From Acaryochloris thomasi RCC1774 (GTDB lineage Bacteria; Cyanobacteriota; Cyanobacteriia; Thermosynechococcales; Thermosynechococcaceae), in NCBI RefSeq assembly GCF_003231495.1, contig NZ_PQWO01000016.1, positions 70,219 through 102,218 of the forward strand: 32,000 nt of DNA. The letters are read 5' to 3'. The position numbers and the translations under genes are program-made. This document shows positions 2,587-31,506 of the stretch, one piece after another (within the stretch, counting starts at the first letter, position 1; each line of letters starts with the position of its first letter). The notes under the pieces are model-generated. The model saw only the letters and a program-made list of their open reading frames with translations. It had not been told where the DNA came from and searched no databases.

Positions 2587-2602
2587 GCACTAGATATGGT
2601 AC
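2587..2602. promoter_or_regulatory. Weaker second NrdR-like box overlapping the nrdJ start codon
   Basis: GCACTAGATATGGTAC partly matches the same pattern. Its centre is about 43 bp from the first box, roughly four helical turns. The match is degenerate. Confidence 0.2.
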
Positions 2603-5600: not shown

Positions 5601-5676
5601 CATCTATCGATCTGGGACCCTAGACTCTGAACCGATTAAGGTGGGTGAAGCCGAAAAATCAGAGGAGACGGCTTGA
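2596..5676 (+). CDS. nrdJ: Class II (adenosylcobalamin-dependent) ribonucleotide reductase catalytic chain, containing an intein
   Basis: Track ORF of 1026 aa. The class II active-site finger TNPCGEI is present but split: ...FVTCTNP | C-VTANTW...LVAHN | CGEIFLPPNSACNLGSL. Other RNR-like blocks include GGVGINIG, PRRNATVLSIAPTGSI, SKTINLP and KGVTIYRSGT. Removing the intein leaves a 652-aa extein. Confidence 0.93.
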   Translation: MVLAQSPTSELSESQRAVLQKYLINGETSWEAVAQRVARFVASAEPTPELQQTWEQKFLSILLPMKFVPGGSILANSDHGTHGMLNCFVLSSEDHIHDITKLVSDSVLTTKFRGGVGINIGAEGDKGYIRPKGAPFQDGKALGPCAVLDMVSENSKKITTGNKARRGAFLFSMNWRHPDVWEFIQAKTQSTIDANLVKGIIEEMAQLTLSDEPAAEKQAKLTALQNQLGTAWVETHLNPEGKRDRRWHNANISVQLDDEFFEKLDQGDEEAQKLWHTMAQNAHDTADPGLLLIDNAKRRSPIRDFVTCTNPCVTANTWIHTGEGARQVKDLVGIQHSTYVNGELFSTTREGFWATGDKPVFRLQTQEGYHLRLTGNHRVLKVTAQTRRRQYTEWVTADALEAGDRILLHNHRQISPWQGAGTQNEGWLLGSLVGDGTFANNASGAMQGILAFWGEHHQPMLNHAVTLLNQIDCTSSFGRSYAVAGTCTQQKQKGVVSTVRLARLAQTFGIKPGHKTITTAVEQASYAFYQGFLQGLFDADGSVQGNQAKGVSLRLAQSDLPLLEAVQRMLLRMGIASTVYAQRREAQERLLPNGQGGTALYACKAQHELVIAGNNIQQFAEQIGFQDPDKAAKLNTVLATYVRTPNRERFAVTVTSLTPDGIETVYDCTVPGPACFDANGLVAHNCGEIFLPPNSACNLGSLVLTKFVHRDEQGEINVDWDDLAETVGISIRFLDNVLSVSEFATPDQKENVTNVFRQLGLGIMGWADYLKLARIPYDSQEHLEAIDHWGSWIANHAYRASETIAAEKSPCGVWSQIKDVKTGNPFEMWVDSEGNHYNGAEVLESDRQDLAQVPRRNATVLSIAPTGSIAQLAACSWAFEPDFGLTLWKQVFVDASKNEQNWVQILNPYLDELDLSDADAEIVKQTGSLAGTQYATAHPDVTGSFKIAREIPPGWHIIVQSKWQDWIDSSISKTINLPAQATVEEIKQIYRLAEKAGLKGVTIYRSGTLDSEPIKVGEAEKSEETA
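3529..4650 (+). mobile_element. Intein (374 aa) with LAGLIDADG homing-endonuclease domain inside nrdJ
   Basis: - N-terminal Cys1 block: CVTANTWIHTGEG.
- Block B T-x-x-H: LRLTGNHRVL.
- Two LAGLIDADG motifs: WLLGSLVGDGTF and FLQGLFDADGSV.
- C-terminal block: VYDCTVPG...NGLVAHN, followed by +1 Cys (CGEI).
- The segment is in frame: both (3529-2596) and (4651-2596) are divisible by 3. Confidence 0.9.
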
Positions 5677-7291: not shown

Positions 7292-8278
7292 ATGAAAACT
7301 AAACCTATATTGACTGGCCTTGCTTCGGCCCTCGTTGTCTCAGTTGTTTGCGCCCTATCAGTTAGTCAGGCAAGTGAGCAGACTGGCGAAGCATTACAGC
7401 CTGAGCAAGGCGAGGCTACGGTTACTCAATCTGAGCCTGAATCTGAGACAACGGTTCCAGAATCGAGTGTAGAGAAAGTCGGAGAAGTTGAAGCTGAAGC
7501 CACTGAGGCTTCTCTAACTCAGCTCTACAGTCATGAAATATTAGGTAAGTCAGCGGTTACGCTTTACGTTAAAGATATCCCTGTCGTCACGTTTCTCGGG
7601 GACAGTTCAAAAGCAAAGGCTGCGGCAGGAACAAAGGTTGCTGGTGATGCCTCTATTGACGAGACAAAAGATCCGATGTGGCGCGCCACTACAGTCGCTG
7701 CCAAGATCAATCAATTTCAGCAGTCTGGGGCTAACGCTGATCTTGTACGCGTAATTTGGGATAAAAAGCAAAAAACCTACGTCATCCGGGTGCAGGATGA
7801 GCAACTGCTGGCGATCAATCAAGAGACGATTCTGCCAAAAACCACGAAAGATGTTGCAGAAGATGCGCTCAAAATCACCAACCTCCTACGCAGGCAGCTA
7901 GGAGAGGACAAGGCACTGACCGATATTCCTGGTCGTCCGAAGCCTAAGATTGCCAAGGCCGCCAAGAACAAAAATGCTGCTGTACGCTATCAGCTCAGTG
8001 GTCAGGCTTCTTGGTACGGCGGTTACTTTCATGGTCGTAAGACGGCTAGTGGTGAGCGATATAATCAAAATGCTTTGACTGCAGCCCACAAGACTCTAAG
8101 ATTTGGAACTCGCGTACGGGTGACAAACCTTAATAATGGCCGCTCTGTGGTGGTTCGCATCAATGACCGGGGGCCCTTTGTCAGGGGGCGGATTATTGAT
8201 ATGTCTCGAAAAGGGGCACAGGCCATCGGCCTGACAGGAAGCGGCGTTGCTCCCGTCAGAGTCGACGTATTGAAATAA
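7292..8278 (+). CDS. rlpA: RlpA-family (double-psi beta-barrel) septal-ring lytic transglycosylase-like lipoprotein
   Basis: The C-terminal block GQASWYGGYFHGRKTASGERYNQNALTAAHKTLRFGTRVRVTNLNNGRSVVVRINDRGPFVRGRIIDMSRKGAQAIG is a classic RlpA DPBB domain. I set the start at ATG 7292 (MKTKPILTGLASALVVSVVCALS, a signal peptide) rather than the track start at 7247. Confidence 0.85.
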   Translation: MKTKPILTGLASALVVSVVCALSVSQASEQTGEALQPEQGEATVTQSEPESETTVPESSVEKVGEVEAEATEASLTQLYSHEILGKSAVTLYVKDIPVVTFLGDSSKAKAAAGTKVAGDASIDETKDPMWRATTVAAKINQFQQSGANADLVRVIWDKKQKTYVIRVQDEQLLAINQETILPKTTKDVAEDALKITNLLRRQLGEDKALTDIPGRPKPKIAKAAKNKNAAVRYQLSGQASWYGGYFHGRKTASGERYNQNALTAAHKTLRFGTRVRVTNLNNGRSVVVRINDRGPFVRGRIIDMSRKGAQAIGLTGSGVAPVRVDVLK

Positions 8279-8468: not shown

Positions 8469-8807
8469 ATGAGCGAGTTCGGCAATGATCCAAAGCAGGC
8501 AGCCCCGGAACCGGAGGTCGATTCCACGGTGGAGCCAGAGGCCAGTGCTAAAACGAGTATCGAAGAGTTTTTCGTAAATGCGAATACGGTGACGACCCGC
8601 GTCAGGGAACTGCTCCGAGAGGGCAACGTTCGCCAGATTGTCATCAAAACTGAGGCGGGACGCCCGTTTTTCAAGATTCCTTTTACTGTGGGCTTTATCG
8701 GTGGTACGTTGGGTTTAATGATGTCTCCTCTACTCATAACGTCTGTGGCTGCGCTAGGAGTACTGGCTGGACGCTTAACCCTGGTTGTTGAAAAGAATAT
8801 AGACTAA
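8469..8807 (+). CDS. Small conserved protein, DUF4342-like
   Basis: 112 aa. The pattern ...ELLREGNVRQIVIKTEAGRPFFKIPFTVGFIGGTLGLMMSPLL... followed by a hydrophobic tail matches what I recall for DUF4342. Confidence 0.45.
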   Translation: MSEFGNDPKQAAPEPEVDSTVEPEASAKTSIEEFFVNANTVTTRVRELLREGNVRQIVIKTEAGRPFFKIPFTVGFIGGTLGLMMSPLLITSVAALGVLAGRLTLVVEKNID

Positions 8808-8829
8808 TCCGCCTCTAGAACTCTGCACT

Positions 8830-9270
8830 ATGGAATTTAAAACACCGGCCCAGCAAGATGGCTTCAAAAAAGTGCGTGGTTGGATGGATGAATTGTTCAG
8901 CCAAATCCCGTGGGAAGTACTAGATGAACCGGGTGTGGGTTTGTTTATGGGGTCAGCTTGGGTAGAAGTCCGGCTCTACCCTTGGAATGAAGATTCTGTC
9001 ATTAATATTCGCTCTACCGTGGTATCTGAGGCCAAATTAGATGCAACGCTGCAGAACTTTTTGCTGAGGGAAAACGCTGAACTGAGATTCGGGGCGTTTT
9101 CTCTCAATGAGGCTGGGGACATTCTGTTTGAGCATACGATTGTTGGCTCGACCTGCGATCCTCAAGAGCTAGAGGCATCTGTGATGGCGGTGCTGCAGGC
9201 CGCTGATGATTACGATGATCAGATCGTGAGCCGCTGGGGTGGCAAACGCGCATTGGATAAAAGCCCCTAG
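8830..9270 (+). CDS. Hypothetical protein, possibly YbjN-domain (chaperone-like) family
   Basis: 146 aa and acidic. The segment LLRENAELRFGAFSLNEAGDILFEHTIVGSTCDPQELEASVMAVLQAADDYDDQI resembles the YbjN-type fold pattern. The assignment is from memory only. Confidence 0.4.
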   Translation: MEFKTPAQQDGFKKVRGWMDELFSQIPWEVLDEPGVGLFMGSAWVEVRLYPWNEDSVINIRSTVVSEAKLDATLQNFLLRENAELRFGAFSLNEAGDILFEHTIVGSTCDPQELEASVMAVLQAADDYDDQIVSRWGGKRALDKSP

Positions 9271-11332: not shown

Positions 11333-12115
11333 ATGATGCGGCTATTCAGAACTTTTGTGCCTTTCTATGTTCTCGCGTTGATGCTAGCGGTTGATGCGGT
11401 ACAGGCGGCAGAGTGGTCTGAGATTCTACGTCGCGGGCACTTGGTGGTGGCGGTCAAGGACAATCTTAGACCGCTGGGGTTCCGTGATCGGCAAGGTCGG
11501 CTCCAGGGGTTTGAAATTGATTTAGCCCGACAGTTGGCCCAAGATTTGCTGGGGGATTCAACGGCGGTAGTGCTGAAGCCTGTTTTGAACCAGGATCGGC
11601 TCACGGCTGTCATTGAAGGAGAGGTAGATGTTGCGATCGCAAACATAACCCGCACCGACAACCGTAGGCGGATCGCCAACTTCAGCTTGCCCTACCACAC
11701 CAGCTCCACCCAACTGATCACTCAAGCCTCACAAATCCGCGAAGCCAAAGATCTGCAGACGATTGCAGTTCTGCAGCATTCCCATAATATTGCAGTCCTC
11801 AAATCCGCATTCCCCAACACGAATCTGATTGGTGTCCGTACTTACCAAGACGCCATAACCCACCTAGAAACGCAAAAAGCTGATGCCTTTGCGGGTGATC
11901 AAGCCGTTCTTACTGGCTGGCAGCAAAAAAACTCAGCCTATCGAATCATCGGGCAACCCCTAGCTCGTCAGCCTTTGGCAGTCGCGCTGCCGAAGGGCCT
12001 GCAGTACAACTCGCTGCTAGACAAGATTAATCAGTCATTAGATCAGCTCAACCAGTCAGGATGGCTAGAGCAACGCCGACAGCATTGGGGACTAGAACAG
12101 CACCGCAAACTTTGA
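11333..12115 (+). CDS. Periplasmic substrate-binding protein, amino-acid ABC transporter type (family 3 SBP)
   Basis: It has a signal peptide (MMRLFRTFVPFYVLALMLAVDAVQA). Typical family 3 blocks are present: LVVAVKDNLRPLGFRD..G.L.GFEIDLARQLA and ...DVAIANITRT..R...ANFSLPY... Confidence 0.8.
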   Translation: MMRLFRTFVPFYVLALMLAVDAVQAAEWSEILRRGHLVVAVKDNLRPLGFRDRQGRLQGFEIDLARQLAQDLLGDSTAVVLKPVLNQDRLTAVIEGEVDVAIANITRTDNRRRIANFSLPYHTSSTQLITQASQIREAKDLQTIAVLQHSHNIAVLKSAFPNTNLIGVRTYQDAITHLETQKADAFAGDQAVLTGWQQKNSAYRIIGQPLARQPLAVALPKGLQYNSLLDKINQSLDQLNQSGWLEQRRQHWGLEQHRKL

Positions 12116-18979: not shown

Positions 18980-19008
18980 TATGCAATGATAATCGTTATC
19001 ATTGTATA
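18980..19008. promoter_or_regulatory. Zur/Fur-type operator palindrome in the divergent promoter region
   Basis: TATGCAATGATAA-TCG-TTATCATTGTATA is a 13-3-13 inverted repeat with one mismatch. Its core TGATAATcGTTATCA fits the 7-1-7 Zur-type box. The 19-nt core AATGATAATCGTTATCATT is identical to the one at 29279..29309. It lies 64 to 92 nt upstream of the minus-strand gene start (18916) and 23 to 51 nt upstream of GTG 19031. Confidence 0.7.
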
Positions 19009-19030: not shown

Positions 19031-20245
19031 GTGAAGAGCCAGATAGATATTGCCGTGATCGGGGCCGGACCCCAAGCGCTGACGTTAGTGACCCATCTGC
19101 TGCAGAAGAAGCAGGCTCTACGCGATCGCATCCAAGTCTTTGATCCCAGCGGCACCTGGATGGCGCAGTGGCAACAGCAGTTTGCGGCGCAGGAGATTCC
19201 CTATTTGCGATCGCCTGGTGTGCATCACCCCGATCCTAAACACACCCTATTCAACTTTGCTGAACGCCGCCAGGATGAGCTGCATCTGCCCTACAATCGG
19301 CCCGGTACAGCACTGTTTCAAGATTTCTGTGAAACTGTCATTGATCGCTGGCAACTGCGCGATCGAGTGACCGCAGCCCAGGTGATGAAGTTAACGCCGT
19401 TGCCGTCCCGATTTCAGCTTCAGTTGAGTAACGGCGAACAAATTGAAGCGCGGCGGGTCGTTTTAGCGACGGGCGGCGGCAAAGCACAGGTGCCTGCCTG
19501 GGTTGCCCAGGTTAATCTCCATCCTCCAGAACGGCTGTGTCACGCCCAAGATGTTTGCCTGCCAGAATTACCGGACCTGACGGGTGAAACGGTTTTGATT
19601 GTCGGTAGTGGGCAGTCCAGCGCTCATTTAGCGGTGGGGGCTGTTGGGCGAGGCGCGAGGGTATTGCTGATGGCCCGTCGGACCCTGACGGAAAAGCTAT
19701 TTGATGCGGAACCGGGTTGGTTGGGGCCGAAGTATCTGAAGGGTTTCCAGGCAGAGCAAGACTGGCAAGTGCGCTGGCAGATGATTCAAGCGGCCCGGAA
19801 CGGCGGGTCAATTGCGCCGGAGCTGCTGCATCGACTGCGGCGATATTCACGTTCTGGGCAAGTCACCTTTTATGAGCGCTGTCATGTATCTAATGCGACC
19901 TGGCAAGGAGAAGCATGGCAGGTGCAGTGTAGTTTGCCGACTGTGCATGATTGTTTAGCACATCAGTCTATTGATCGGATCTGGCTGGCGACGGGAACGC
20001 AGACGGATATTACAGCGCATCCCTTAATGGGGGAGATTTTGGAGCGATATCCGAATCAGATTGTCAATGGCCTGCCGGTGTTGGATGAGCACTTGCGCTG
20101 GCCCGGTTGTGAGCTATTTTTGATGGGACCGTGGGCGGCGCTGCAGGTGGGGCCGGTGGCGAGGAATTTGCATGGGGGTCGGATGGGTTGCGATCGCATT
20201 GTCCCGGCATTAACCAAGGCCAGCGTTGCTCGAACTGTTGCCTAG
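19031..20245 (+). CDS. FAD/NAD(P)-binding oxidoreductase (two Rossmann motifs; N-hydroxylating-monooxygenase-like architecture)
   Basis: 404 aa starting at GTG, with GGGAGGG at 19021..19027. The first dinucleotide fold is IDIAVIGAGPQALTLV and the second is VLIVGSGQSSAHLAVGAV. The precise subfamily cannot be determined by eye. Confidence 0.75.
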   Translation: MKSQIDIAVIGAGPQALTLVTHLLQKKQALRDRIQVFDPSGTWMAQWQQQFAAQEIPYLRSPGVHHPDPKHTLFNFAERRQDELHLPYNRPGTALFQDFCETVIDRWQLRDRVTAAQVMKLTPLPSRFQLQLSNGEQIEARRVVLATGGGKAQVPAWVAQVNLHPPERLCHAQDVCLPELPDLTGETVLIVGSGQSSAHLAVGAVGRGARVLLMARRTLTEKLFDAEPGWLGPKYLKGFQAEQDWQVRWQMIQAARNGGSIAPELLHRLRRYSRSGQVTFYERCHVSNATWQGEAWQVQCSLPTVHDCLAHQSIDRIWLATGTQTDITAHPLMGEILERYPNQIVNGLPVLDEHLRWPGCELFLMGPWAALQVGPVARNLHGGRMGCDRIVPALTKASVARTVA

Positions 20246-20485
20246 AGTTTCAAAACTGGTAAATCTAGAACCTGGTGCAGGCAGTATATTTATTGGCTTA
20301 AGATACCCAAACTTAGTCTTTTGAATACGGTGAACAACAGGATAATCCCCTCAGGGCCGGAGTCATCTGACTTCTGATTGATAATGCTCTTGTCTCAGAG
20401 TTATCAGGTTCTTGGTGGATAATACTCTCCCGGCCAGAGTTATTATGCATCATCCGTATAATTAATAGTTATAGCAGCTAGGGAG
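20141..20485 (+). repeat. Copy A of a diverged ~350-bp direct repeat (last ~105 nt of the flavoprotein CDS plus a ~240-nt hairpin-rich leader)
   Basis: It aligns with 24286..24640 through shared blocks, in the same order: GGTGGCGAG.AA.TTGC.TGGGGG, GGATGG..TGCGAT, ATTGT.CCGGCATTA, AAAACTGGTA, CTGGTAAAT, TGCAGGCAGT, CCCAAACTT, GGTGAAC, CAGGATAAT, CCTCAGGG, GAGTTATCAG, CATC.GT, TAATTA, TAGTTA. It contains three hairpin units at 20339..20366, 20378..20405 and 20416..20443. Confidence 0.8.
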
Positions 20486-20586
20486 ATATAGTGAGCATTC
20501 CAGGGATCAGGAATGCCTTCATATTAAGGATTCTGGAGATGAAAACATCCTAACCGTCTGCCTCTCTACGATAGATTTTTGAAACC

Positions 20587-21474
20587 ATGAACGAGCAAGC
20601 ACAGTTACCAGAACCTCCGCAGTTTTCTGACGAGGAAATGCAGAGATGCCGAGAAACTGGCGACTTCATGCCTATGCTTTTTGAGTGGTACAAGTTTGTT
20701 GGTCATGTCTGCATATTTTTCGCCCAATTACAGAGAGAGTCACCAACAGTCAGAGAAATTTTACCAATCCACTTTGCTATTCTTACTGGGCTACTAAACC
20801 GTTGTGCGAGATTGATGCTGTCAAACATAGCGCTTTCCCATAATGGAAATTTTGGAGAGACAACAGCACTCTTGGACAGGTGTATTTTTGAATCTTGCCT
20901 CAAATTAGATTGGCTGTGTCATGAAGGAAATGATGATAGTTTTCAGTGCTATTTGGCGGGTGGACTCAAAACAGAAATAGAGCTTGAAAAAGAAATAAGG
21001 GGAAAAATAACTGAGCGAGAAGACAGCGAAGTTCTTCACATTGAAAAGCGTATGCTTTCATCTATTGATCGCTATATCAATGCTGCAGGATTGAGCCGCG
21101 AAGAAATTATCGAAGCTAAAAAGCTACCCGATGTTTCTGCAATGCTTCGAGATTTAGGCCATGAAAGGTTAATGTACGTAGTTGCACAACGGCTGGGTTC
21201 ACATCATGTACATGGAACCTGGCCAAGCCTTTTACTACATTACCTTGAGGTTGATGATGATGGTGGTTTCACTCTCAGAGATCATGATTGTCATACACAT
21301 CCAAATCAATTTGTAATGACCCCGCTTCAGGTTTTGGGGGCGATTACATCATTTATTGTTTTTGTAATCGAGGCCGAAGATGCAGAAGGCATTGTGAGCT
21401 TGTTAGATTCTATTCAAGAAGAAATTCTGAACATCAATGGCGAAATGATTGGGAGCGACTTTCAGCGTTCATAA
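20587..21474 (+). CDS. Hypothetical protein (295 aa), AT-rich cassette gene; predicted all-alpha, possibly DUF5677-like, with an Rx4-6H (HEPN-like) motif
   Basis: A clean ORF in a visibly AT-rich segment with no HIP1. Notable motifs are LNRCARLMLSNIALSHNG, LLDRCIFESCLKLDWLCHEG and AQRLGSHHVHGTWPSLLLHYL. I recognise no enzymatic signature. The family assignment is from memory and weak. Confidence 0.6.
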   Translation: MNEQAQLPEPPQFSDEEMQRCRETGDFMPMLFEWYKFVGHVCIFFAQLQRESPTVREILPIHFAILTGLLNRCARLMLSNIALSHNGNFGETTALLDRCIFESCLKLDWLCHEGNDDSFQCYLAGGLKTEIELEKEIRGKITEREDSEVLHIEKRMLSSIDRYINAAGLSREEIIEAKKLPDVSAMLRDLGHERLMYVVAQRLGSHHVHGTWPSLLLHYLEVDDDGGFTLRDHDCHTHPNQFVMTPLQVLGAITSFIVFVIEAEDAEGIVSLLDSIQEEILNINGEMIGSDFQRS

Positions 21475-21565
21475 CAGTTCTAACGCTTGTGGATAAATTG
21501 ATACTGATCTCTGAATTACGGGCATAATAGCCTGATACAACACTTGTTAAATATAGGTTTAAACA

Positions 21566-21781
21566 ATGCCTCAAGTAAAAAGATTTGATATTAAGGGTGA
21601 GAACGGAATCGATGAAAGTGCCTCTGTCGGCATACATGAGTTAATTGTGAAAGTGGATGGTCAGCCTTTTTCAGAAAAAAGTTCAGCAAAGGCAAGCCTT
21701 ACTTGGTACAACAGCAAAAATGAACTTCAGGGATACAAAGTTGTCCCTTTTTTGGATGGATATGCTTTGTACAAACCGTAA
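21566..21781 (+). CDS. Hypothetical small protein (71 aa), co-oriented partner of the 295-aa cassette gene
   Basis: It begins with ATG, 91 nt after the upstream stop, and shares the same AT-rich composition. It ends 9 nt before the MITE-like element. I recognise no homology. Confidence 0.4.
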   Translation: MPQVKRFDIKGENGIDESASVGIHELIVKVDGQPFSEKSSAKASLTWYNSKNELQGYKVVPFLDGYALYKP

Positions 21782-21790
21782 AGTAGAGTA

Positions 21791-22073
21791 GTGCCACCTA
21801 CATTCCGCAGGTTAGTGAATTCTTGTAAACCTTTTCCAGTAAAGGCTTTGAGCCTTAGCTTGAAACTCAAGAATACCTCCCTCAGATCGTTGAGATACAG
21901 GTGGCCGATTAACCTGTATTGCTTCTCTAATCTGGCTTCTAGAGAGTCTGTGATCTGTTTTTTCAGGTGATGCAACCTGGATTGATGGAACAGAGTCGAT
22001 TTTTGACAGGCCCTGTAACCTTTATCTAGTATGGCTTCTAGAAAAGCGTACTACCTGCGGAATGTAGGGTGCC
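21791..22073. mobile_element. MITE-like element or heavily deleted IS relic with terminal inverted repeats
   Basis: The left end GTGCCACCTACATTCCGCAGGT (21791..21812) pairs with the right end ACCTGCGGAATGTAGGGTGCC (22053..22073). The 16-nt core CCTACATTCCGCAGGT is a perfect inverted repeat. The ~240-bp interior has only an 82-aa ORF fragment on the minus strand and no intact transposase. Confidence 0.6.
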
Positions 22074-22103
22074 AAGGCGTTCTGTGATAGCAAAACCACT
22101 TCT

Positions 22104-22928
22104 CTAGCCCATACCATTTTCATTCTCGTCCAAGCTGAGGGTAAATCCTGTCACCCATCCTCGCTGAACCCACAGCGGAAGCAGTGCTGTGACGGCTATG
22201 TCTGCGGTGCGGTCCTCAAGCTGGGCGCAAATCTCTCCAAACTGAGCACCGGAAGCAAAGGCTTGTAATAGCTGCCATTCAGCGGCATTGGGTAAGTCAA
22301 TCCGGGTTTCATACTGGTCTCGCCAGAGAAATAGATTGACCTCACCCTCGCTTAGATCGACAGTTTCGGTACTGGATGCATCGGCTTGATTGACCTGCCA
22401 AATTCGGTGTATAGGGTACGGTGAGGTCAGTAAAATGCTACTGGCTGGGAGCTGAAACACTAAATCAGGCCAACGGCCGGGGGGCACTTTACTCAAGGCT
22501 GCTAGATCTAAAAGGGGTTGGTCTTTACTGTTGAAGATACGGTGCCAATTCCACTCTAAATGGGCCACATCCGGCAGATAGGGGAGCGAGGCAGCCGGTT
22601 CAAACTGGGCTAGAAAGTCAGAGAGCTGTTCCCCATAGTCCCCTAAATCGGGTGATTGCGATGGATACCGACGGATATATTGACGAGCCATAGTGGTGAA
22701 AAACTGGGTTCCCACCAACCGACCGCACACAGGATAAATATCTTCTAGAGCACGACTGAGTTTGCCAACAACGCTGCCTTGATAGGCCGACAGACCTCGT
22801 TCAAAGGAGAGATGTTCAGTGCTACGCATCTGGGGTTTGAGCTGCTGGATGCTGTCGGAGTCTTTAGTTGCGATCGCACTATAAAACAACCGCTGTAGCT
22901 CTCTCAGTTCTGGGGGTGGTGTTGACAT
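22104..22928 (-). CDS. bufC: DUF2063-family protein (BufC/MbnC-like RiPP recognition partner of the DUF692 enzyme)
   Basis: 274 aa. The segment LSAYQGSVVGKLSRALEDIYPVCGRLVGTQFFTTMARQYIRRYPSQSPDLGDYGEQLSDFL fits the DUF2063 N-terminal pattern. Its start overlaps the upstream DUF692 gene by 25 nt. Confidence 0.75.
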   Translation of the reverse strand: MSTPPPELRELQRLFYSAIATKDSDSIQQLKPQMRSTEHLSFERGLSAYQGSVVGKLSRALEDIYPVCGRLVGTQFFTTMARQYIRRYPSQSPDLGDYGEQLSDFLAQFEPAASLPYLPDVAHLEWNWHRIFNSKDQPLLDLAALSKVPPGRWPDLVFQLPASSILLTSPYPIHRIWQVNQADASSTETVDLSEGEVNLFLWRDQYETRIDLPNAAEWQLLQAFASGAQFGEICAQLEDRTADIAVTALLPLWVQRGWVTGFTLSLDENENGMG

Positions 22929-23725
22929 AGATAGGTATCAGCCTGCTGTGCTTCGGCCATCAAAACATCAAAGCTAGGAATATCCGTATCCCACTCAATC
23001 AGCGTCGGCACCGGACCAAACCGCTGGAGTGCCTGTTGATAAAGCGCCCAGACTCTAGGCTGTACCGGGTAGCCGTGGGTATCGAATAAAAAGTGGTCCT
23101 GCTCTTCGTAACCGGCCAGATGAATCTCCTTGACGCGATCGGTGGGAATGGCTTCCAGATAGTCCAACGGGTCAAAGGCGTGATTCGCGGCATTGACGTA
23201 GACATTATTGATATCCAAGAGCAGATCGCAATCAGCCTCAGCCACGAGAGCGGCAATAAACTGCCATTCGGCCAAGCTGTTGTGGCGAAACTGAAGGTAA
23301 GGCGATAAATTTTCAATGAGAATCCGCCGACCAAGGAAGTCCTGCACCTGCGAAATCCGATCTGCAACGTAATGGAGGACCGATTCAGTGTAGGGCAACG
23401 GAGCCAAGTCGTTGAAGTAATGACCATTGACCGAAACCCAGGCCAAGTGATCGGAAATATAGACGGGTTCAATCCGATCAGCAAGCCGCTTGAGCTGGGT
23501 CAGGTAGTCAATGTTGAGGGGATCTGCAGACCCCAGCGACAGACTAACGCCGTGCAGCGTGAGCGGATACCGTTCCCGGACTTGTTCTAGATGATAAAGG
23601 GGCAAACCACCCCCCAAATAGTTGTCGGAGAGGGCTTCTAGCCAGGGTACGGCGGGTTGATGAGCGAGGATGTGGGCGTAATGTTGCGATCGCAACCCAA
23701 TCCCAGCTCCCTGAATCTCAGGCAT
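22904..23725 (-). CDS. bufB: DUF692 / UPF0276 multinuclear non-heme iron oxidative enzyme (MNIO; MbnB/BufB-like)
   Basis: GAGIGLRSQHYAHIL, LEALSDNY, LHGVSLSLGS, ISDHLAW, ILIENLSPY, LLDINNVYVNAANH, EIHLAGY and LIEWDTDIP are the conserved DUF692 blocks. I set the start at ATG 23725 (MPEIQGAGIGLR) rather than the TTG at 23782 used by the track. Confidence 0.88.
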   Translation of the reverse strand: MPEIQGAGIGLRSQHYAHILAHQPAVPWLEALSDNYLGGGLPLYHLEQVRERYPLTLHGVSLSLGSADPLNIDYLTQLKRLADRIEPVYISDHLAWVSVNGHYFNDLAPLPYTESVLHYVADRISQVQDFLGRRILIENLSPYLQFRHNSLAEWQFIAALVAEADCDLLLDINNVYVNAANHAFDPLDYLEAIPTDRVKEIHLAGYEEQDHFLFDTHGYPVQPRVWALYQQALQRFGPVPTLIEWDTDIPSFDVLMAEAQQADTYLCQHHPQN

Positions 23726-23802
23726 TGAACGATAGATACTCCAAAATGTCAGGGTGTCTGCTGTCAACAAACAGGCACCCAAAATACATGAGATAGATAG
23801 GT

Positions 23803-24117
23803 TTAATCCTCTTCCTTTTCTGCTTCCGCCTCTTCAGCAGGCGGTGCGGCCTCTTTCAACGTTGAGCCAACAATTTTTTCGCAGGTTCCAGCAGGCACAT
23901 AAATCCATTCTTCTGGGTCATTGTCGACTGTCGCTTTACCAGAGCAGTCATGCTTGCTCGTGCCACAGTCGTTGAGACCGGTCTTGACGATTCCGGCGCA
24001 TTTTTCAAATCCAGCCTTACCGGCAACTGCATCATCAGATTGATTTGCAAGTATTCCGAGGGCAAGCACACTCGATAAAGCGGTGGTCACGGCGACGGCT
24101 TTGGTTGTTGTGTTCAT
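23803..24117 (-). CDS. bufA: DUF2282-family secreted peptide (bufferin BufA1-type RiPP precursor) with acidic C-terminal extension
   Basis: A signal peptide ([24 protein letters not shown]) precedes the core [48 protein letters not shown], which has the four conserved Cys of DUF2282. It is the first gene of the DUF2282-DUF692-DUF2063 operon. The extra tail is [20 protein letters not shown]. Confidence 0.8.
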
Positions 24118-24285
24118 AATGGTGGATAGACTCCAAGGGATTTACTGTGTTGAGCTAGGCAACCCAATCATGGGAAGTCGCTCTCATTGATAATACGAAT
24201 AACTATGACGATTGGATGTGGAAACGTGAATCTCTTTGAGATGCGTCAGCTTGTCCTTGGCGTCTGTCAGCGCTTTGGCTGCTGA

Positions 24286-24407
24286 TAGCAACTGGGGGGC
24301 AAGTGGCGAGAAACTTGCGTGGGGGGGCGGATGGCGTGCGATGGCCGTTAGCGAAGCCCTTCCTCTAAAGGCAGGCCGGAGACCACTGCATTGTTCCGGC
24401 ATTAGCG
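24286..24407 (+). pseudogene. Relic of the 3' end of a flavoprotein gene (paralogous to the end of CDS 19031..20245)
   Basis: It aligns with 20141..20214 (CDS codons for ...VGPVARNLHGGRMGCDRIVPAL) but is interrupted by a ~46-nt insertion (24343..24388). There is no upstream coding continuity. Only spurious overlapping ORFs occur on both strands (24184..24402 minus, 24236..24454 plus). Confidence 0.55.
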
Positions 24408-24640
24408 AAAACTGGTATTGCCCACACAGTCACATAAGGTTTTATGCCTGGTAAATTTAATATCTGATGCAGGCAGTTCATCGCGTAGGACTTTTCAATC
24501 TTGAGATTCCCAAACTTGGTTTTCTAAACATGGTGAACTCCAGGATAATATCCTCAGGGTCGGATTTATCCGGTTTTTGGCGAAAATATCTCTAATGCCG
24601 GAGTTATCAGCTGCCATCGGTCTAATTATAGTTAGACCTC
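24286..24640 (+). repeat. Copy B of the diverged ~350-bp direct repeat (gene-end relic plus hairpin leader)
   Basis: See copy A for the shared blocks. It contains two hairpin units at 24543..24571 and 24582..24609. The first, GGATAATATCC-tcagggtc-GGATTTATCC, is followed by GGTTTTTGG and so looks like a terminator. It has an extra 35-nt insertion after AAAACTGGTA and lacks the third hairpin unit of copy A. Confidence 0.8.
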
Positions 24641-24763
24641 TATGCTATCTGTGGAGAGCGCAGAGGTAAACGTTATATGAAATCAATGATTCAACAGGTA
24701 ATTATGGGTAGCCTAAGGCAGAAGGATTGAAATCTTGTATAGTCTAGACACCAAAGCAATAAC

Positions 24764-26308
24764 ATGTCGATTTCTCAACAACGATTACATAAGCTAGAGA
24801 TAATCAAGCTAAAGAATGTTAGAGACGTTTGTATTTCATTTGAAAACAAAAATATAACTGGCATTCTTGGTCCAAACGGTTATGGAAAGTCGACTATTCT
24901 TCATGCGCTTGCCTGTTGTTTCCAGCCACCAAATCAAGGACAAGAAGACTATAAATTCAGTGATTTTTTTCTGCCAAGCCCTGATGCATTATGGGCAGGT
25001 AGTGAACTAAGATTAGTTCATACTTATCGTCAATCCTCTCAACTGCACGAAGGTGTGGAGCAAGTCTACGGAAAGAGCAGCGATCGGTGGAAACCAATAT
25101 ATAAAAGAAGGCCAACAAGGAATGTACATTATTTTGGTGTGGACAGTTGTGTCCCACTCATCGAATCAGAAAAACGAAATGTAAAAATCAATTACTCAAC
25201 CGAGAACTTAAGTGAAGATATTATTACTACAATCTTAGAGAAAGCCTCGTATTGTCTTAATCGGAAATATACAGCTTATAATATTCATAAGCATGGCAAA
25301 GGGAGAAGGTTTATTGGCGTTGAAGCTAATGGAATTAGATACTCTGCACTAAGCATGAGTGCTGGAGAACAGAAAATGTTCTTGTTGCTATAAAAAGTTT
25401 TTAGAGCCTCTAAAAACAGTCTTATTCTTATAGATGAATTTGACCTGCTTTTGCATGATTCAGCAATGAAAAACCTTATAAAGATTATATCTGAAAGAGC
25501 AGCACGTTATAATCTGCAAGTTGTATTTACAACGCATAGAGAATCAATTATTGAGCTGTCGGATTTAATTAATATAAGACATATTTTTGGAACGTCAGAA
25601 AAAACTCTTTGCTTTGATGAGACAAAACCCGATGCGATAAATCGTTTAACAGGGACTCAACCTAGATTGATTGAGATTTTCGTTGAAGATGATCTGGCTA
25701 TGGCGATTACAAAAAAGGTGGCAGGTCAACTGCGTATTTCCAAGCATGTTTCTGTACAAAGGTTCGGTGCTGCTATAAATTGTTTTACAGTTCTATCTGG
25801 ATTACGTCTACGTGGTGAAAATTGCGACAATAGTATTTTTGTGTTGGATGGAGATGTCTATAGAACTCAAGAAGAACAAAAAATACGGATAGAGGCTGTT
25901 TTAACTGGAAATGATGAACGGTCAAAATTACTTCGAGAATCTAGTCTTGCGAAAATAAAATGCTTAAACCTTCCAGAAAACACCGAGCCTGAAAAATATA
26001 TTCATAGTATTATTACCGGGCTAGAAGAGACTGACGATAACGAACATAATGAAATAATTGAAGTTGCTAAGCAAATTGCGGCTGTTGATGACAGTCATAA
26101 GTTTGTAGATGATATAATACGCAGGCTTGACTGGAATCGAGATGTCGGATTATCAAAAATAATCGATCTGATTAGCTCTACTCAAGAATGGGCTAATTAT
26201 GTTTCTAGCGTAAATGATTGGTTGATTTCAAAAAGAGAATTGGTGCAAGAGACTACTTCCCAAGAAGTCTCTTGCATTGCGTCGCAGCGAATGGAAGGGA
26301 GATCTTGA
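24764..26308 (+). pseudogene. ABC/OLD-like ATPase fused to a TOPRIM/DUF4435-like domain, interrupted by one in-frame TAA (25391..25393)
   Basis: - Track ORFs 24764..25393 and 25451..26308 are in the same frame ((25451-24764)=687).
- The 57 nt between them contain no further stop and encode the Walker B region: ...SAGEQKMFLLL*KVFRASKNSLILIDEFDLLLH.
- Other ATPase motifs are Walker A GPNGYGKST and the H-loop VVFTTHRES.
- The C-terminal half has the TOPRIM-like acidic motifs IEIFVEDDLAMAI and IFVLDGDVY.
- The segment is AT-rich and I saw no HIP1. Confidence 0.7.
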
Positions 26309-26411
26309 TGTTGAGTTTGGTCTATCTGCCGCCGCTGAACTCAGCCGTTAGACGTAAGTTCTCCCAAGTTCAAATATCCTAAACTCATCAAGGCTAGTTG
26401 CTTGCCCTGCC

Positions 26412-26427
26412 GTATCCCACAGGATAC
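26412..26427. promoter_or_regulatory. Candidate HigA operator palindrome
   Basis: GTATCC-CACA-GGATAC is a perfect 6-bp inverted repeat ending 10 nt upstream of the higB ATG (26437). Confidence 0.3.
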
Positions 26428-26436
26428 GATTAGGCT

Positions 26437-26727
26437 ATGCTTGAAATCCGCGAAACCCAAGTTTATGCTTGTTGGTTCAGCAGCTTACGAGATAGGCGGG
26501 CCAAAGCACGCATCGATACTCGAATTCGTCGCTTATCTCTGGGAAATCCAGGTGATGTTAAGCCAGTTGGAGCAGGTGTCTCTGAACTTCGTATTGACTA
26601 TGGGCCAGGTTACAGAATTTATTTCATTCAGCGCGGATCAGCCGTGATTGTCTTGCTTGCCGGTGGAGACAAACGGACCCAAACCCAAGACATCAAACAA
26701 GCGCTTGAATTAGCTGAAGATTTATAG
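26437..26727 (+). CDS. higB: Type II toxin, RelE/ParE superfamily (HigB-type 'addiction module killer protein')
   Basis: 96 aa. FSSLRDRRAKARIDTRIRRLSLGNPGDVKPVGAGVSELRIDYGPGYRIYFIQRGSAVIVLLAGGDKRTQTQDIKQA is the typical pattern of this toxin family. The toxin gene comes first, followed by the antitoxin 10 nt later. Confidence 0.85.
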   Translation: MLEIRETQVYACWFSSLRDRRAKARIDTRIRRLSLGNPGDVKPVGAGVSELRIDYGPGYRIYFIQRGSAVIVLLAGGDKRTQTQDIKQALELAEDL

Positions 26728-26736
26728 GAGGATGAC

Positions 26737-27042
26737 GTGCCTAAAACTAAAACTCAGCCTTGGGACGCAGCAAATCACTTAGAAACTAAAGAGGACATAG
26801 CAGCATATCTCGAAGCGGCGCTTGAAGATGGAGATCCTGCCTTGATTACTGCCGCCCTTGGAGATGTTGCTCGTTCTAAAGGAATGACACAGATCTCGCG
26901 TGATACTGGCCTTGGTCGTGAAAGTCTCTATAAAGCGTTATCTGTCGAAGGTAATCCAGAATTTGCAACGATTCTCAAGGTTTTTCAAGCTTTAGGCCTT
27001 CAGTTACAGGTGAAGACAGTTGAAAGTGAAAGCTTTGTCTAA
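26737..27042 (+). CDS. higA: Type II antitoxin, HigA-family HTH 'addiction module antidote protein'
   Basis: 101 aa starting at GTG. WDAANHLETKEDIAAYLEAALEDGDPALITAALGDVARSKGMTQISRDTGLGRESLYKALSVEGNPEFATILKVFQALGLQL is the typical pattern. AGGAGG lies at 26727..26732. Confidence 0.85.
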   Translation: MPKTKTQPWDAANHLETKEDIAAYLEAALEDGDPALITAALGDVARSKGMTQISRDTGLGRESLYKALSVEGNPEFATILKVFQALGLQLQVKTVESESFV

Positions 27043-27264
27043 CAACGCCATGCAAGCAACGCTCGATTCAAGCTATCAGTTGTATTTTTTCACACTTCTG
27101 CTTGCGCCCCTGAAGAATCACCGTTGAGATGAAGCGGTAGCCAGAAGCTGCCCCGTCAGGTTGGGTTGACGCAGGAAATTCAATACCGTAGGAATAATTG
27201 AAGCCTTGTGATCCAAGAAGCGAGGATCCGTGAAGCATAATCCATTCAATTCTCTTAGAAGTCG

Positions 27265-29278: not shown

Positions 29279-29309
29279 CTATAGAATGATAATCGTTATC
29301 ATTCTATAG
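29279..29309. promoter_or_regulatory. Zur/Fur-type operator: perfect 14-3-14 palindrome upstream of the COG0523 gene
   Basis: CTATAGAATGATAA-TCG-TTATCATTCTATAG has perfectly complementary arms. The core TGATAATcGTTATCA matches the 7-1-7 Zur-type box and is identical to the core at 18980..19008. Confidence 0.8.
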
Positions 29310-29397: not shown

Positions 29398-29793
29398 TCA
29401 GGTTGCAGCATTAACCTGAGTACAGTTCTGGCACAGGCCAAAAAATTCCAGCGTATGATAAAAAACTTGAAACTGTTGGGTTTGGGCGAGCTGTTGCTCT
29501 AGGTCGTGTACAGGGCATTCCTGTAAAGGCAAAGAACGACCACAGTTAACGCAGGTAAAATGATGCCGGTGCGCAGAGGCAATGCTGTAGATGTATTCAC
29601 CATTAGCGAGAGGCCGCGCCTGGACTTTGCCGATAAGCTGCAGAGCTTTAAGGGCACGGTATACCGTTGCTAAGCCGACCTGTTGCTGCTGTTGTTTCAA
29701 GGCTTGATGCAAAGACTGGGCAGACAGCTCTTCTGCAGAGGAAAACAAGACTTCCAGAATTCGCCGTTGATTGGCAGTTAGTTTTTCTTTCAT
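29398..29793 (-). CDS. zur: Fur-family transcriptional regulator, most likely Zur
   Basis: 131 aa. A winged-helix N-terminus (LTANQRRILEVL...GLATVYRALKAL) is followed by the metal sites HRHHFTCVNCG and GLCQNC. It lies immediately upstream of the palindrome-controlled COG0523 operon. The Zur versus other Fur paralog call rests on context. Confidence 0.65.
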   Translation of the reverse strand: MKEKLTANQRRILEVLFSSAEELSAQSLHQALKQQQQQVGLATVYRALKALQLIGKVQARPLANGEYIYSIASAHRHHFTCVNCGRSLPLQECPVHDLEQQLAQTQQFQVFYHTLEFFGLCQNCTQVNAAT

Positions 29794-30006: not shown

Positions 30007-30822
30007 ATGGCTCCTGTCGATGCCATCACCTCTACCTCTAACCCTGAAGTCTTACCGACTCCAGTAGAGGCAACACGTCCTGAAGATTACAGCGCCCCTC
30101 CCACAGATCTTTACAGCGACGAACCGTCCTTGGAAACCGACTTTCACCGCGACCAAGTTGACTTGCTGATTCGTCTGTTGAAATACTGGTGGCAAGAGCG
30201 CAATGACTTTTATATCTCTGGAAATCTCACCGTCTACTACAGCGCCAGTCAAACCAAAAAGCGAGATTTTCGTGGACCCGATGTATTTGTGGTGCTGGGG
30301 GCTGAAAAGAAAAACCGTCGCAGTTGGACCATTTGGGAAGAAGGGGGTCAATACCCCAACCTAGTGATCGAGCTACTATCAGATTCCACTGCTGCCGTAG
30401 ATAAGGGCACCAAGAAAGATTTATATGAAAAAATCTGGCGCTTGCCAGAGTATTACTGCTTCCATCCTGAGACGTTGGAATTTACTGGGTTTCGGTTAAT
30501 GAATGGCGAATATGAAGCCATTTAAGCTGACGATAGTGGCAGGCTAGAGAGTCAGCAATTGGGTCTAGCTTTAGGAATTCACGAACGACAACTGCGCTGG
30601 TTTACCGCAATAGGTGAACTGATTCCGTTACCTGAAGAGATTGAACGACAGCAGAAAGAGCAAGAGCGACAGCAGAAAGAGCAGGCCGAACAACGAGAGC
30701 AGCAAGAACGTCAAGCTAAGGCGCAGGCCGAACAGAGAGAACAGCAGGAACGCCAAGCTCGACAACGCCTAGAGGCATATCTTAGATCGCAGGGCATTGA
30801 CCCAGAGCATTTACCAGAATAG
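30007..30822 (+). pseudogene. Uma2-family (DUF820) putative endonuclease with Glu/Arg/Gln-rich coiled-coil tail, interrupted by one in-frame TAA (30523..30525)
   Basis: - Track ORFs 30007..30525 and 30559..30822 share a frame ((30559-30007)=552).
- There is no other stop between them: ...NGEYEAI*ADDSGRLESQQLGLALGIHERQLRWF...
- The Uma2 pattern is present: DEPSLETDFHRDQVDLLIRLL, GNLTVYY, PDVFVVLG, PNLVIELLSDST and DKGTKKDLYEKIWRLPEYYCF.
- The tail has tandem coding repeats (ERQQKEQ x2, AEQREQQERQA x2). Confidence 0.7.
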
Positions 30823-31068
30823 GGGTATTGCACGCTGCACAGCAGACCCTCTTTTTATCGCGGGATTGTTTGCCGCAGCTTGGCCCAATCCATTATTTCG
30901 TCACTTCAATGACAAGAGACGACCAGTTGCCAAGGAGCCTCTATAACTCAACTTTCAGAGCCGTCATCGGTCTTACTCTTGTAGGGCATTTGGCAAAGTG
31001 TTGGATGTCTGCGTTGAGATTGCCTCTACGCAAAAAGGCAATTGAGTTGAATATACTGCCGCTAGGAT

Positions 31069-31506
31069 CTAGGAGAGCCAACCCCAGTGATGGCTGCTCT
31101 GGGAATTGAGTAAGGTACGCGAGGCTTGCTGGTTAGACGGCTCTTCTTCAGTCTCTTGAAGAATCTGCAGTAGCTCTGCAGAGTTAGGTGCAGCTAAGAC
31201 CTGATCGGTGAGGGATGTCATATGCTGGCCCACAATATCGTAAACCAGCTGCATATCGTTGACGCCCACCAGTTGGGTTTGCATCGCGCCAAAGCCTGTA
31301 CGTAGAATCTGAGCGTTGGGTGTGGCCGGGAGCCGCTTCAAAAAAGAGGCGAGGGAGTCCCGTACCTCGGCCGGGGTCAATTCTTTCTGGATCTGAGTGG
31401 GGGTTGCAGCGGGTTGACTGAGGGCAGGTAGATTTGCCGGTTGTGGGGCTTCATTGACGGGTGAAACCAGAGTCATCACCGACAGGGCATAACATCCAAC
31501 ACACAT
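31069..31506 (-). CDS. Hypothetical protein
   Basis: A 145-aa minus-strand ORF with a Pro/Ala/Gln-rich N-terminal region. I recognise no motif, and the start is uncertain (alternative Met at aa 11). Confidence 0.35.
   Translation of the reverse strand: MCVGCYALSVMTLVSPVNEAPQPANLPALSQPAATPTQIQKELTPAEVRDSLASFLKRLPATPNAQILRTGFGAMQTQLVGVNDMQLVYDIVGQHMTSLTDQVLAAPNSAELLQILQETEEEPSNQQASRTLLNSQSSHHWGWLS

Follow-up and report, generated by a model that had tools for sequence, protein, structure and literature searches.

The attI1 site of class 1 integrons combines a simple site (L and R boxes, G|TTRRRY) with the upstream direct repeats DR1 and DR2, which bind the integrase IntI1, and one attI per integron is the norm. 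Cyanobacterial integrons are on record (PMC2426708, PMC4889954), and attI is unknown for most integrons according to IntegronFinder (PMC4889954). The Xanthomonas integron downstream of ilvD is sedentary and occupies a fixed locus, with a decayed intI (Gillings et al. 2005, as summarised in bioRxiv 10.1101/2025.06.18.660453). Clusters of attC sites lacking an integron integrase (CALINs), proposed to arise by loss of intI or by genome rearrangement (Cury et al. 2016, PMC4889954), are called where at least two attC sites lie within 4 kb and no intI is nearby. Here we analyse a stretch of 32,000 nucleotides from the cyanobacterium Acaryochloris thomasi RCC1774 (the window; bare coordinates are positions in it), in which a first-pass annotation had noticed a diverged direct repeat. 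Each of its two copies, A and B, consists of the 3’ end of a flavoprotein gene and a non-coding ‘leader’, and each is followed by different AT-rich genes. From comparison with loci in other genomes and contigs (L numbers) and with their proteins (P numbers), we consider it very probable that each leader copy is the attI region of a chromosomal cyanobacterial integron minus its intI. The locus is a decayed sedentary integron, a well-known kind of gene-capture system and not a new kind of element.

The repeat itself is sound. Segments 20141-20485 and 24286-24640 align with 73% mean column identity, and a Smith-Waterman comparison of 20196-20408 with 24388-24610 scored 83, against 19.4±2.2 (maximum 26) for 200 shuffles, so the similarity is real; no direct repeats in the window are longer than the two that this pair forms (111 nt at 71% and 90 nt at 70%). 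The first-pass annotation had described collinear blocks over ~350 bp, with copy A as a functional gene end and copy B as a relic with a ~46-nt insertion and no gene body, and this description holds. The coding part of copy A is the last ~105 nt of an intact flavoprotein gene, orthologs of which are found at 54 cyanobacterial loci. In copy B, homology to the gene begins at ~24260, leaving ~175 nt of the gene end and none of its body. Its translation reads GQVARNLRGG, RMACD and IVPALAKTGIAHTVT, the last corresponding to GPVARNLHGGRMGCDRIVPALTKASVARTVA in copy A; the stop codons of the two line up. A 1-nt frameshift separates GQVARNLRGG from RMACD, an insertion of ~45 nt (24343-24387) separates RMACD from IVPALAKTGIAHTVT at what is a HIP1 site in copy A, and one ~40-nt internal unit of copy A is missing. 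The insertion splits HIP1 as GCGAT|CGC and is 84% identical to positions 4084-4126 of L068, an intergenic region of another organism that also adjoins GCGAT; it may be a small HIP1-associated insertion element.

The claim that AT-rich cassettes without HIP1 follow both copies, with HIP1 present in the bufferin operon between them, also agrees with our counts. GC content is 0.33-0.43 in both cargo stretches and 0.50-0.59 in the flanks, and HIP1 is absent from 20246-22103 and 24118-27067 while the bufferin operon has two sites. The HIP1 part is weak evidence only, because just ~2.5 sites would be expected at the density of the window. The gene sets named by the annotation (a DUF5677 gene with a 71-aa open reading frame (ORF) after A, an OLD-like gene with HigBA after B) were found, except that the ‘two’ OLD-like ORFs belong to one gene, interrupted once in frame by a TAA (25391-25393); that gene is either a recent pseudogene or a candidate for read-through.

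Next, we searched the flavoprotein ortholog loci for the non-coding module by BLAST and with hidden Markov models (HMMs). The module is ~180 nt long and starts with a 5’ block, CTTAAGATTCCCAAACTT..GGTGAAC, followed by one to three units of ~40 nt, each an inverted repeat GGATAAT-N14-16-GAGTTATCC, and a terminal ATCCGTATAATTA(A)TAGTTA. It occurs after the flavoprotein gene of the closest relative (copy L001b), where a 2.1-kb insert on the upstream side of the gene contains a second copy (L001a); behind a DUF29 gene in L006, an Acaryochloris metagenome-assembled genome, at 8 kb downstream of the flavoprotein gene; in metagenomic contigs L057 and L068-71; and in L072 and L081. A pattern scan of metagenomes returned 10 matches with one true copy (L057). 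In 10/10 distinct copies similarity is lost right after GTTA and a different ORF comes next, while the 5’ boundary varies from copy to copy and may be an intI gene, an intI relic, a DUF29 gene, a HigA stop codon or the flavoprotein gene end. The idea of a reusable landing pad with different foreign cargo behind each copy was right in substance: the pad would be an integron attI, and the cargo of copy B is delimited by remnants of attC sites.

The attI assignment draws on what lies beside the module in relatives. Short ORFs flank it divergently, 20-35 nt away, in L057, L067 and L072, and their only matches are to the N-terminal part of integron-integrase models (NF011946, 1.4e-5 to 4e-13; TIGR02249, down to 1.4e-14); a second, more decayed integrase relic precedes another copy in L067. 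A longer integrase relative, P0006, scored 5e-32 against integron integrase and 2e-3 against XerC. Used as a query, it retrieved full-length cyanobacterial proteins annotated as integron integrases, and beside three of the four examined the module occupies the attI position. It lies immediately 5’ of an intact intI, in divergent orientation, in L075 (Alkalinema sp. FACHB-956, integrase P0086, leader HMM E=2e-25), L076/77 (P0100, E=8.5e-39) and L078/79 (P0077, E=2.4e-31). The insertion specific to IntI proteins is carried by P0086, where it reads ..ALARKYxNA..WQYVFP..DPRSG..RRHH, and by P0168, P0068 and P0072. P0168 is an intact IntI encoded in the same assembly as L001, on another contig; its attI is similarly built from other repeats and has the same CGTATAAT..GTTAGCC end, and L073 shows the same pattern. 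Both would fit co-evolution of the accessory sites with their integrase. Elsewhere among cyanobacteria, pieces of integrons occur near the flavoprotein gene as a full IntI (L050), a fragment (L046) or attC sites (L003, L016, L021, L033 and L043).

Complementarity between the module end and the R’’ box of the first cassette locates the crossover. L076 is a complete integron with an attI, four cassettes and attC matches (best E=4e-17). Its module ends in the 7-mer GTTAGGC, the exact complement of the first R’’ (GCCTAAC), and the next two junctions also agree at 7/7 positions (GTTAGAC/GTCTAAC and GTTAGCT/AGCTAAC), giving 3/3 along the array. The junction in L075 is likewise 7/7 (GTTATCT/AGATAAC), and those in L057, L067, L073 and L081 are 6/7 each. 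Since such complementarity is the signature of attI × attC recombination at G|TT, we place the crossover at the terminal GTT of the module.

We next asked whether the module could act in cis as a regulatory RNA (a leader or riboswitch) or be simply a regulated promoter, for example of the Zur/Fur type, with downstream genes swapped by ordinary recombination and no connection to integrons. The module always lies 0-130 nt upstream of an ORF on the same strand, contains a -35/-10-like pair, occurs in Zur-regulon neighbourhoods, and has GATAAT/GTTATC half-sites resembling the 7-1-7 boxes TGATAATCGTTATCA at 18985 and 29285. However, its half-sites are 14-16 nt apart and not 1. Rfam gave no match at the gathering threshold over the whole window, the fold z-scores (-0.02 for copy A, -2.15 for copy B) are not convincing in either case, and the GGATAA/TTATCC half-sites vary among copies without compensatory changes. 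Because Rfam is silent, copy A folds no better than its shuffles and the half-site changes are uncompensated, the module is not an RNA leader, and the ‘hairpin leader’ of the first-pass annotation is not upheld. A regulatory reading would moreover leave unexplained why 8 loci have an integron-integrase gene or relic beside the module in divergent orientation, why R’’ and junction are exactly complementary and why attC sites follow the cargo, and we give it almost no credence. A scan of the window for tRNA and tmRNA genes found nothing, so there is no tRNA-type att site. Zur operator arrays were dropped as candidates for their wrong half-site spacing; IS200/IS605 ends, dif/Xer sites and plasmid iterons were dropped for want of associated genes and in view of the direct integron evidence.

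Features of the flavoprotein-bufferin region in the window. attI, attC, crossover and cassette assignments are predictions from sequence comparison.
Feature	Coordinates	Strand	Description and basis
Flavoprotein gene, intact	19031..20245	+	Lys/Orn N-monooxygenase-like FAD/NAD(P) protein; Pfam NAD_binding_9, Lys_Orn_oxgnase
Copy A spacer, flavoprotein stop to attI	20246..20296	+	Common to A, B and L001b, partly L001a (alignments)
attI_A, putative orphan attI region	20297..20474	+	nhmmer E=3e-65; homologous to sequence beside intact intI in L075, L076 and L078
attI_A 5’ block			CTTAAGATACCCAAACTT..GGTGAAC
attI_A unit 1	20340-46 / 20360-67		GGATAAT / GAGTCATC
attI_A unit 2	20379-85 / 20398-406		TGATAAT / GAGTTATCA
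attI_A unit 3	20417-23 / 20437-45		GGATAAT / GAGTTATTA
attI_A simple site	20468|20469 (crossover)		CCGTATAA-TTAATA-GTTATAG; predicted crossover G|TT
Cargo A	20469..21781	+	DUF5677 gene 20587-21474 and 71-aa ORF 21566-21781; Pfam; GC 0.37-0.43
Bufferin operon	22104..24117	-	DUF2063/HvfC, MNIO, DUF2282 precursor; Pfam; ancestral core DNA, not cargo
Flavoprotein 3’-end relic, coding part of copy B	24260..24437	+	Translations; stop codon 24435-24437
Copy B spacer	24438..24499	+	Homologous to 20246-20296
attI_B, putative orphan attI, two units	24500..24637	+	nhmmer E=1e-51
attI_B unit 1	24543-49 / 24562-71		GGATAAT / GGATTTATCC
attI_B unit 2	24582-87 / 24600-09		GAAAAT / GGAGTTATCA
attI_B simple site	24631|24632 (crossover)		GGTCTAA-TTATA-GTTAGAC (GTTAGAC 24631-24637); predicted crossover G|TT
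Cassette B1	24632..26347	+	OLD/HEC-04-like ATPase-TOPRIM gene 24764-26308; PADLOC, Pfam
Decayed attC of B1	26273-26355	+	L’ CGCCGCTGA; R’ GTTAGAC 26347-26353; directly after OLD-like gene
Cassette B2	26348..27116	+	HigB-like 26437-26727 (Pfam Gp49) and HigA-like 26737-27042 (Pfam dnstrm_HI1420)
attC remnant of B2	27037-27116	+	Overlaps HigA stop; attC HMM not trained on this site, E=2.4e-4 (window only), 7e-3 (all loci)

Behind copy B, two decayed attC-like sites lie 0.7 kb apart with no intI, the second of them weak (E=2.4e-4 to 7e-3). These remnants were recognised only by comparison with the attC sites of intact integrons: a crude scan of the window for R’’/R’ complementarity of at least 6/7 with paired ends gave nothing credible, the GCCGTTAR motif is not above chance, and neither are GTCTAAC/GTTAGAC overall, of which the positions alone are informative. 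The attC family of these loci has R’’ yTAACAA, L’’ TGCAGCGGACG, L’ CGCCGCTGA and R’ CGTTAGrC, and it folds as a canonical hairpin in L075 (z=-4.35) and L033 (z=-3.27). The 3’ half of the first window site, CGCCGCTGAACTCAGCCGTTAGAC, is near-identical to the attC of the intact integron L075, and in 948 kb of sequence scanned its motif occurs only at this site and in integron loci. The start of cassette B2, G|TTAGAC (26347), is the exact complement (7/7) of its own R’’, GTCTAAC (27037-27043); for the OLD-like cassette the first 7-mer agrees with its own R’’ (GTCTCTT) at 4/7 positions. A candidate attC at 21466-21556, after the DUF5677 gene, was rejected, with no fold and no HMM match.

Several observations weigh against the attI reading. 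In the window, tblastn with the intact IntI P0086 found no intI, intI relic or IntI-like coding sequence. The attC HMM detected no attC in cargo A, where there is only an R’’-like CATAACAG overlapping the DUF5677 stop, and both window attC sites fold no better than shuffles, which fits decay after loss of the integrase. The attC site of B1 is itself a seed of the HMM that scores it, and that of B2 reaches only the modest E-values given above. The 7-mer at the junction of copy A, GTTATAG, mismatches GTTRRRY. A promoter scan called a promoter-like TTATCA-17-TATAGT directed toward the cassettes in attI_B (9/12 match to consensus) and none in attI_A, so that the promoter amounts to a consensus match in B alone. 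The attI identity is drawn from homology and position, the origin of copy B is something we can only infer, and IntI chemistry does not account for two attI sites here, two in L001 and three in L067.

With these points in mind, the module as an integron attI suggests the following scheme. In intact relatives IntI, encoded divergently ~25-55 nt upstream of the module, would join the terminal simple site (..CGTATAA-N6-G|TTRRRY) to the attC hairpin of a circular cassette. Recombination at G|TT would keep the sequence left of the G constant and place captured, AT-rich, strain-specific cargo on its right, which would be transcribed from a promoter, TTATCA-17/18-[T/A]ATAGT, that overlaps the site. 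The attI region would then be the stretch from intI to the insertion point, holding integrase-binding repeats and probably the cassette promoter; the ~40-nt units presumably bind IntI, and the promoter is presumably active. The spacer 20246..20296 occupies the position of the intI 5’ end in integrase-bearing relatives. In the window, intI appears to have been deleted, leaving the flavoprotein stop, ~50 nt and the attI, and L001 is in the same state. Such a deletion would freeze the platform, with units and attC sites decaying and one cassette gene acquiring a nonsense codon, and from then on the platform could be served only in trans, if at all. The window copies look inactive. The first-pass annotation had reported that no integrase or transposase was visible and that the mechanism was unexplained. 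The absence of an integrase from the window stands, and no transposase was found among the window ORFs run against Pfam (ORFs such as 8469-9270 and 30559-31506 were outside that scan), but relatives keep intact or truncated integron-integrase genes beside the module, which resolves the question of mechanism.

To place the two copies in their neighbourhood, we compared gene order among relatives. In the close relative L080 (MNIO 87% identical), the flavoprotein gene and the bufferin operon are convergent and 40 nt apart, with neither an attI nor an insert, in the order abhydrolase, flavoprotein, bufferin operon, MICAH, CDF, ArsR, 83-aa gene, WD40, CobW and Zur. Copy A and its cargo follow the flavoprotein stop and precede the bufferin 3’ end; copy B with its cargo takes the place of MICAH to ArsR, flanked by the bufferin promoter and the 83-aa gene. 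L081 has a DUF29 gene, an attI and two cassettes with attC sites where the window has copy A and its cargo, and an attI array at the position of A only. At that position the comparison thus yields an empty site in L080 and different cassettes in L081, and suggests that the L080-like empty arrangement is ancestral. L002 also has no insert after the flavoprotein gene, and A. marina L003 has the bufferin operon near it. Between two convergent gene ends, L002 has at 2809-2826 a palindrome similar to a Zur box (ATGATAACCGTTGTCA) and after it CGCCATATTAG; together they look like the last attI unit with the beginning of the simple site, and could be a minimal remnant of an attI. Since L080 shows that the bufferin operon separating the copies was there ancestrally, A and B are two separate insertions.

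This arrangement bears on the proposal that a single integrative element, bounded by A and B as attL and attR, entered the 3’ end of the flavoprotein gene and brought a replacement gene end, either by site-specific recombination or by Campbell-type integration of a circle with a homologous gene-end fragment. Such an event would leave a complete gene end on the left and, 4.2 kb away in the same orientation, a diverged copy that is truncated, which is the geometry seen here, and comparable duplications exist. In L053 (Cyanothece sp. SIO2G6) a second copy of the final 322 nt of the flavoprotein gene, 89% identical to the first (7676-7997 and 11514-11835), lies beyond a 3.8-kb insert with psbE/psbF-like paralogs, a TPR gene and an ORF of unknown function, a region in which we found no integrase and no attI. 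In L001 a diverged duplicate of the 95-nt abhydrolase/flavoprotein intergenic region, including its Zur box, occurs at 1700-1810 and 3890-3995 around the 2.1-kb insert, which holds a one-unit orphan attI, a 252-aa ORF and an HNH endonuclease gene and has its left junction exactly at the end of the Zur box. However, the DNA between A and B is mostly the bufferin operon, which is ancestral (L080, L081 and A. marina L003) and has host GC content and HIP1; L080 lacks both attI modules yet keeps this operon between the flavoprotein gene and the Zur block. No integrase lies between the copies, at least 7 other contexts have the module but no flavoprotein sequence, and a three-way comparison of informative sites in A, B and L001b gave no crossover mosaic. 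We therefore consider the single element highly unlikely, and the integration into the gene 3’ end proposed in the first-pass annotation does not suit this locus as one element flanked by the two copies.

How copy B arose is a separate matter. Counts of informative sites in the non-coding part (27 for A=L001b, 23 for B=L001b, 18 for A=B) put A, B and L001b at equal distances from one another, so B is not a recent duplicate of A. The ~50-nt spacer shared by A, B, L001b and partly L001a indicates that all descend from one flavoprotein-ΔintI-attI junction. IntI does not move attI sites, and copy B must have been copied or imported along with ~175 nt of the flavoprotein gene. One candidate, which we favour only tentatively and at somewhat less than even confidence, is uptake from a related strain in which the flavoprotein gene, attI and cassettes (OLD-HigBA) abutted the Zur block. 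The right end would have recombined by homology within that block and the left end would have been joined illegitimately at ~24260, so that relic, spacer, attI and two cassettes would have been inserted separately from copy A, with the bufferin promoter on one side and the Zur-regulon block on the other. Copy B might instead come from an old segmental duplication or from the decay of a paralog. In the latter case, raised in the first-pass annotation, copy B would be what remains of a second flavoprotein gene with its own downstream attI, mostly deleted. Its coding-derived sequence with the stop codon in register, and its age, being equidistant from A and L001b, would fit. However, 0/54 loci have two full-length flavoprotein genes, the only second match being the 322-nt fragment in L053; the position of B is occupied in relatives by MICAH, CDF and ArsR genes or a second bufferin precursor; and the paralog would have to be convergent with, and overlap, the bufferin promoter region. 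The decay of a paralog is accordingly without support and very improbable. The comparable duplication in L053 marks the flavoprotein gene end as a recurrent recombination partner, and duplication of gene ends or flanks by recombination with related DNA seems recurrent at this locus.

Orphan attI copies are also found on conjugative plasmids of Acaryochloris, at 7965-8149 of L065 (A. marina pREB6) and in L066 (pREC2), with a hypothetical 190-aa gene starting 20 nt downstream; upstream of the pREB6 copy an integrase relic was looked for and not found. L067 has three attI copies within 6 kb of one contig (19-223, 4462-4631 and 5935-6064, minus strand), two of the three with integrase N-terminal relics and one starting at a HigA stop codon. 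We considered whether attI modules, with their binding repeats, simple site and promoter, could themselves be units of spread, copied or imported with a few hundred upstream bases; we regard this as unlikely. If modules did spread in this way, to several chromosomal sites and to pREB6 and pREC2, they would serve as extra docking and expression platforms used in trans, as might be the case in the L001 organism with its intact IntI on another contig, and the result would be a distributed ‘multi-attI’ integron rather than mere wreckage. To our knowledge, neither this attI architecture nor its conservation across cyanobacterial integrons has been described, nor have several orphan attI sites per locus or on plasmids, and a limited literature search turned up none of these.

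The surrounding DNA looks like a zinc regulon, with CobW, a WD40 gene and a Fur-family regulator in the window and ZnuABC, FolE, ALAD, CDF and ArsR in relatives. Near-perfect 7-1-7 Fur/Zur-type boxes lie at 18985-19003 and 29285-29303, upstream of the divergent flavoprotein/abhydrolase pair and of CobW, and the Fur-family gene (29398-29793, minus strand) is found with CobW and the WD40 gene in the right flank. By this reading the flavoprotein gene, and possibly the bufferin operon, would belong to the regulon. Between cargo A and the bufferin operon (21790-22080) is a 290-bp element resembling a miniature inverted-repeat transposable element, with terminal inverted repeats of ~27 bp (GGCACC(C)TACATTCCGCAGGT) and an internal 31-nt direct repeat (21913/22012); no further copy was found in ~1 Mb of loci examined. 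Farther away, 2596-5676 is a ribonucleotide reductase gene with an intein bearing a LAGLIDADG endonuclease domain, and a small ORF that follows a Uma2-family gene has a stretch rich in Q/E/K/R, encoded by imperfect 21/42-nt tandem repeats (30638-30742).

Altogether, the comparison defines a conserved attI region of ~180 nt and an attC family for a set of cyanobacterial integrons, which makes it possible to spot decayed, integrase-less platforms and to ascribe ‘orphan AT-rich cassettes’ in cyanobacterial genomes to integron capture. It accounts for an apparent integrase-less hotspot in a zinc-regulon island and identifies the OLD-like defence gene and the HigBA pair as integron cassettes. The multiple attI copies, some with a piece of a neighbouring gene, raise a modest question about how integron platforms duplicate or transfer; as the window copies look inactive, the general view of integrons is unchanged.

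Among described systems, the locus resembles genomic islands at gene 3’ ends in having a direct repeat that includes a gene 3’ end and foreign AT-rich DNA beside each copy, but its repeats bound no single element, there is no island integrase, and the intervening DNA is largely ancestral. It is most akin to CALINs and to the Xanthomonas ilvD integrons. Like CALINs, it has cassettes with attC-like sites and no intI nearby; unlike CALINs, which are defined by attC alone since the attI of most integrons is not known, its landmark is the attI, with few and decayed attC sites (two behind B, none behind A). The Xanthomonas ilvD integrons share with it a platform beside one conserved housekeeping-type gene across related taxa, an intI that is often truncated or lost, arrays that differ between close relatives, and cassettes of ORFans and toxin-antitoxin pairs. 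In contrast to them, intI is wholly gone from the window, leaving only attI and cassette remnants; there are two attI sites within 4.2 kb (relatives have as many as three), one of them joined to part of the adjacent gene; and the host is a cyanobacterium, with the platform in a zinc-regulon island. Finally, the module is similar to attI1 in its terminal inverted-repeat simple site ending in GTT at the cassette junction, in the repeated GTTAT-type motifs upstream of it, and in its place beside and divergent from intI. It differs in length (~180 nt vs ~65 nt), shares no sequence similarity with attI1, and has as its accessory sites one to three ~40-nt inverted-repeat units that are putative binding sites of IntI.

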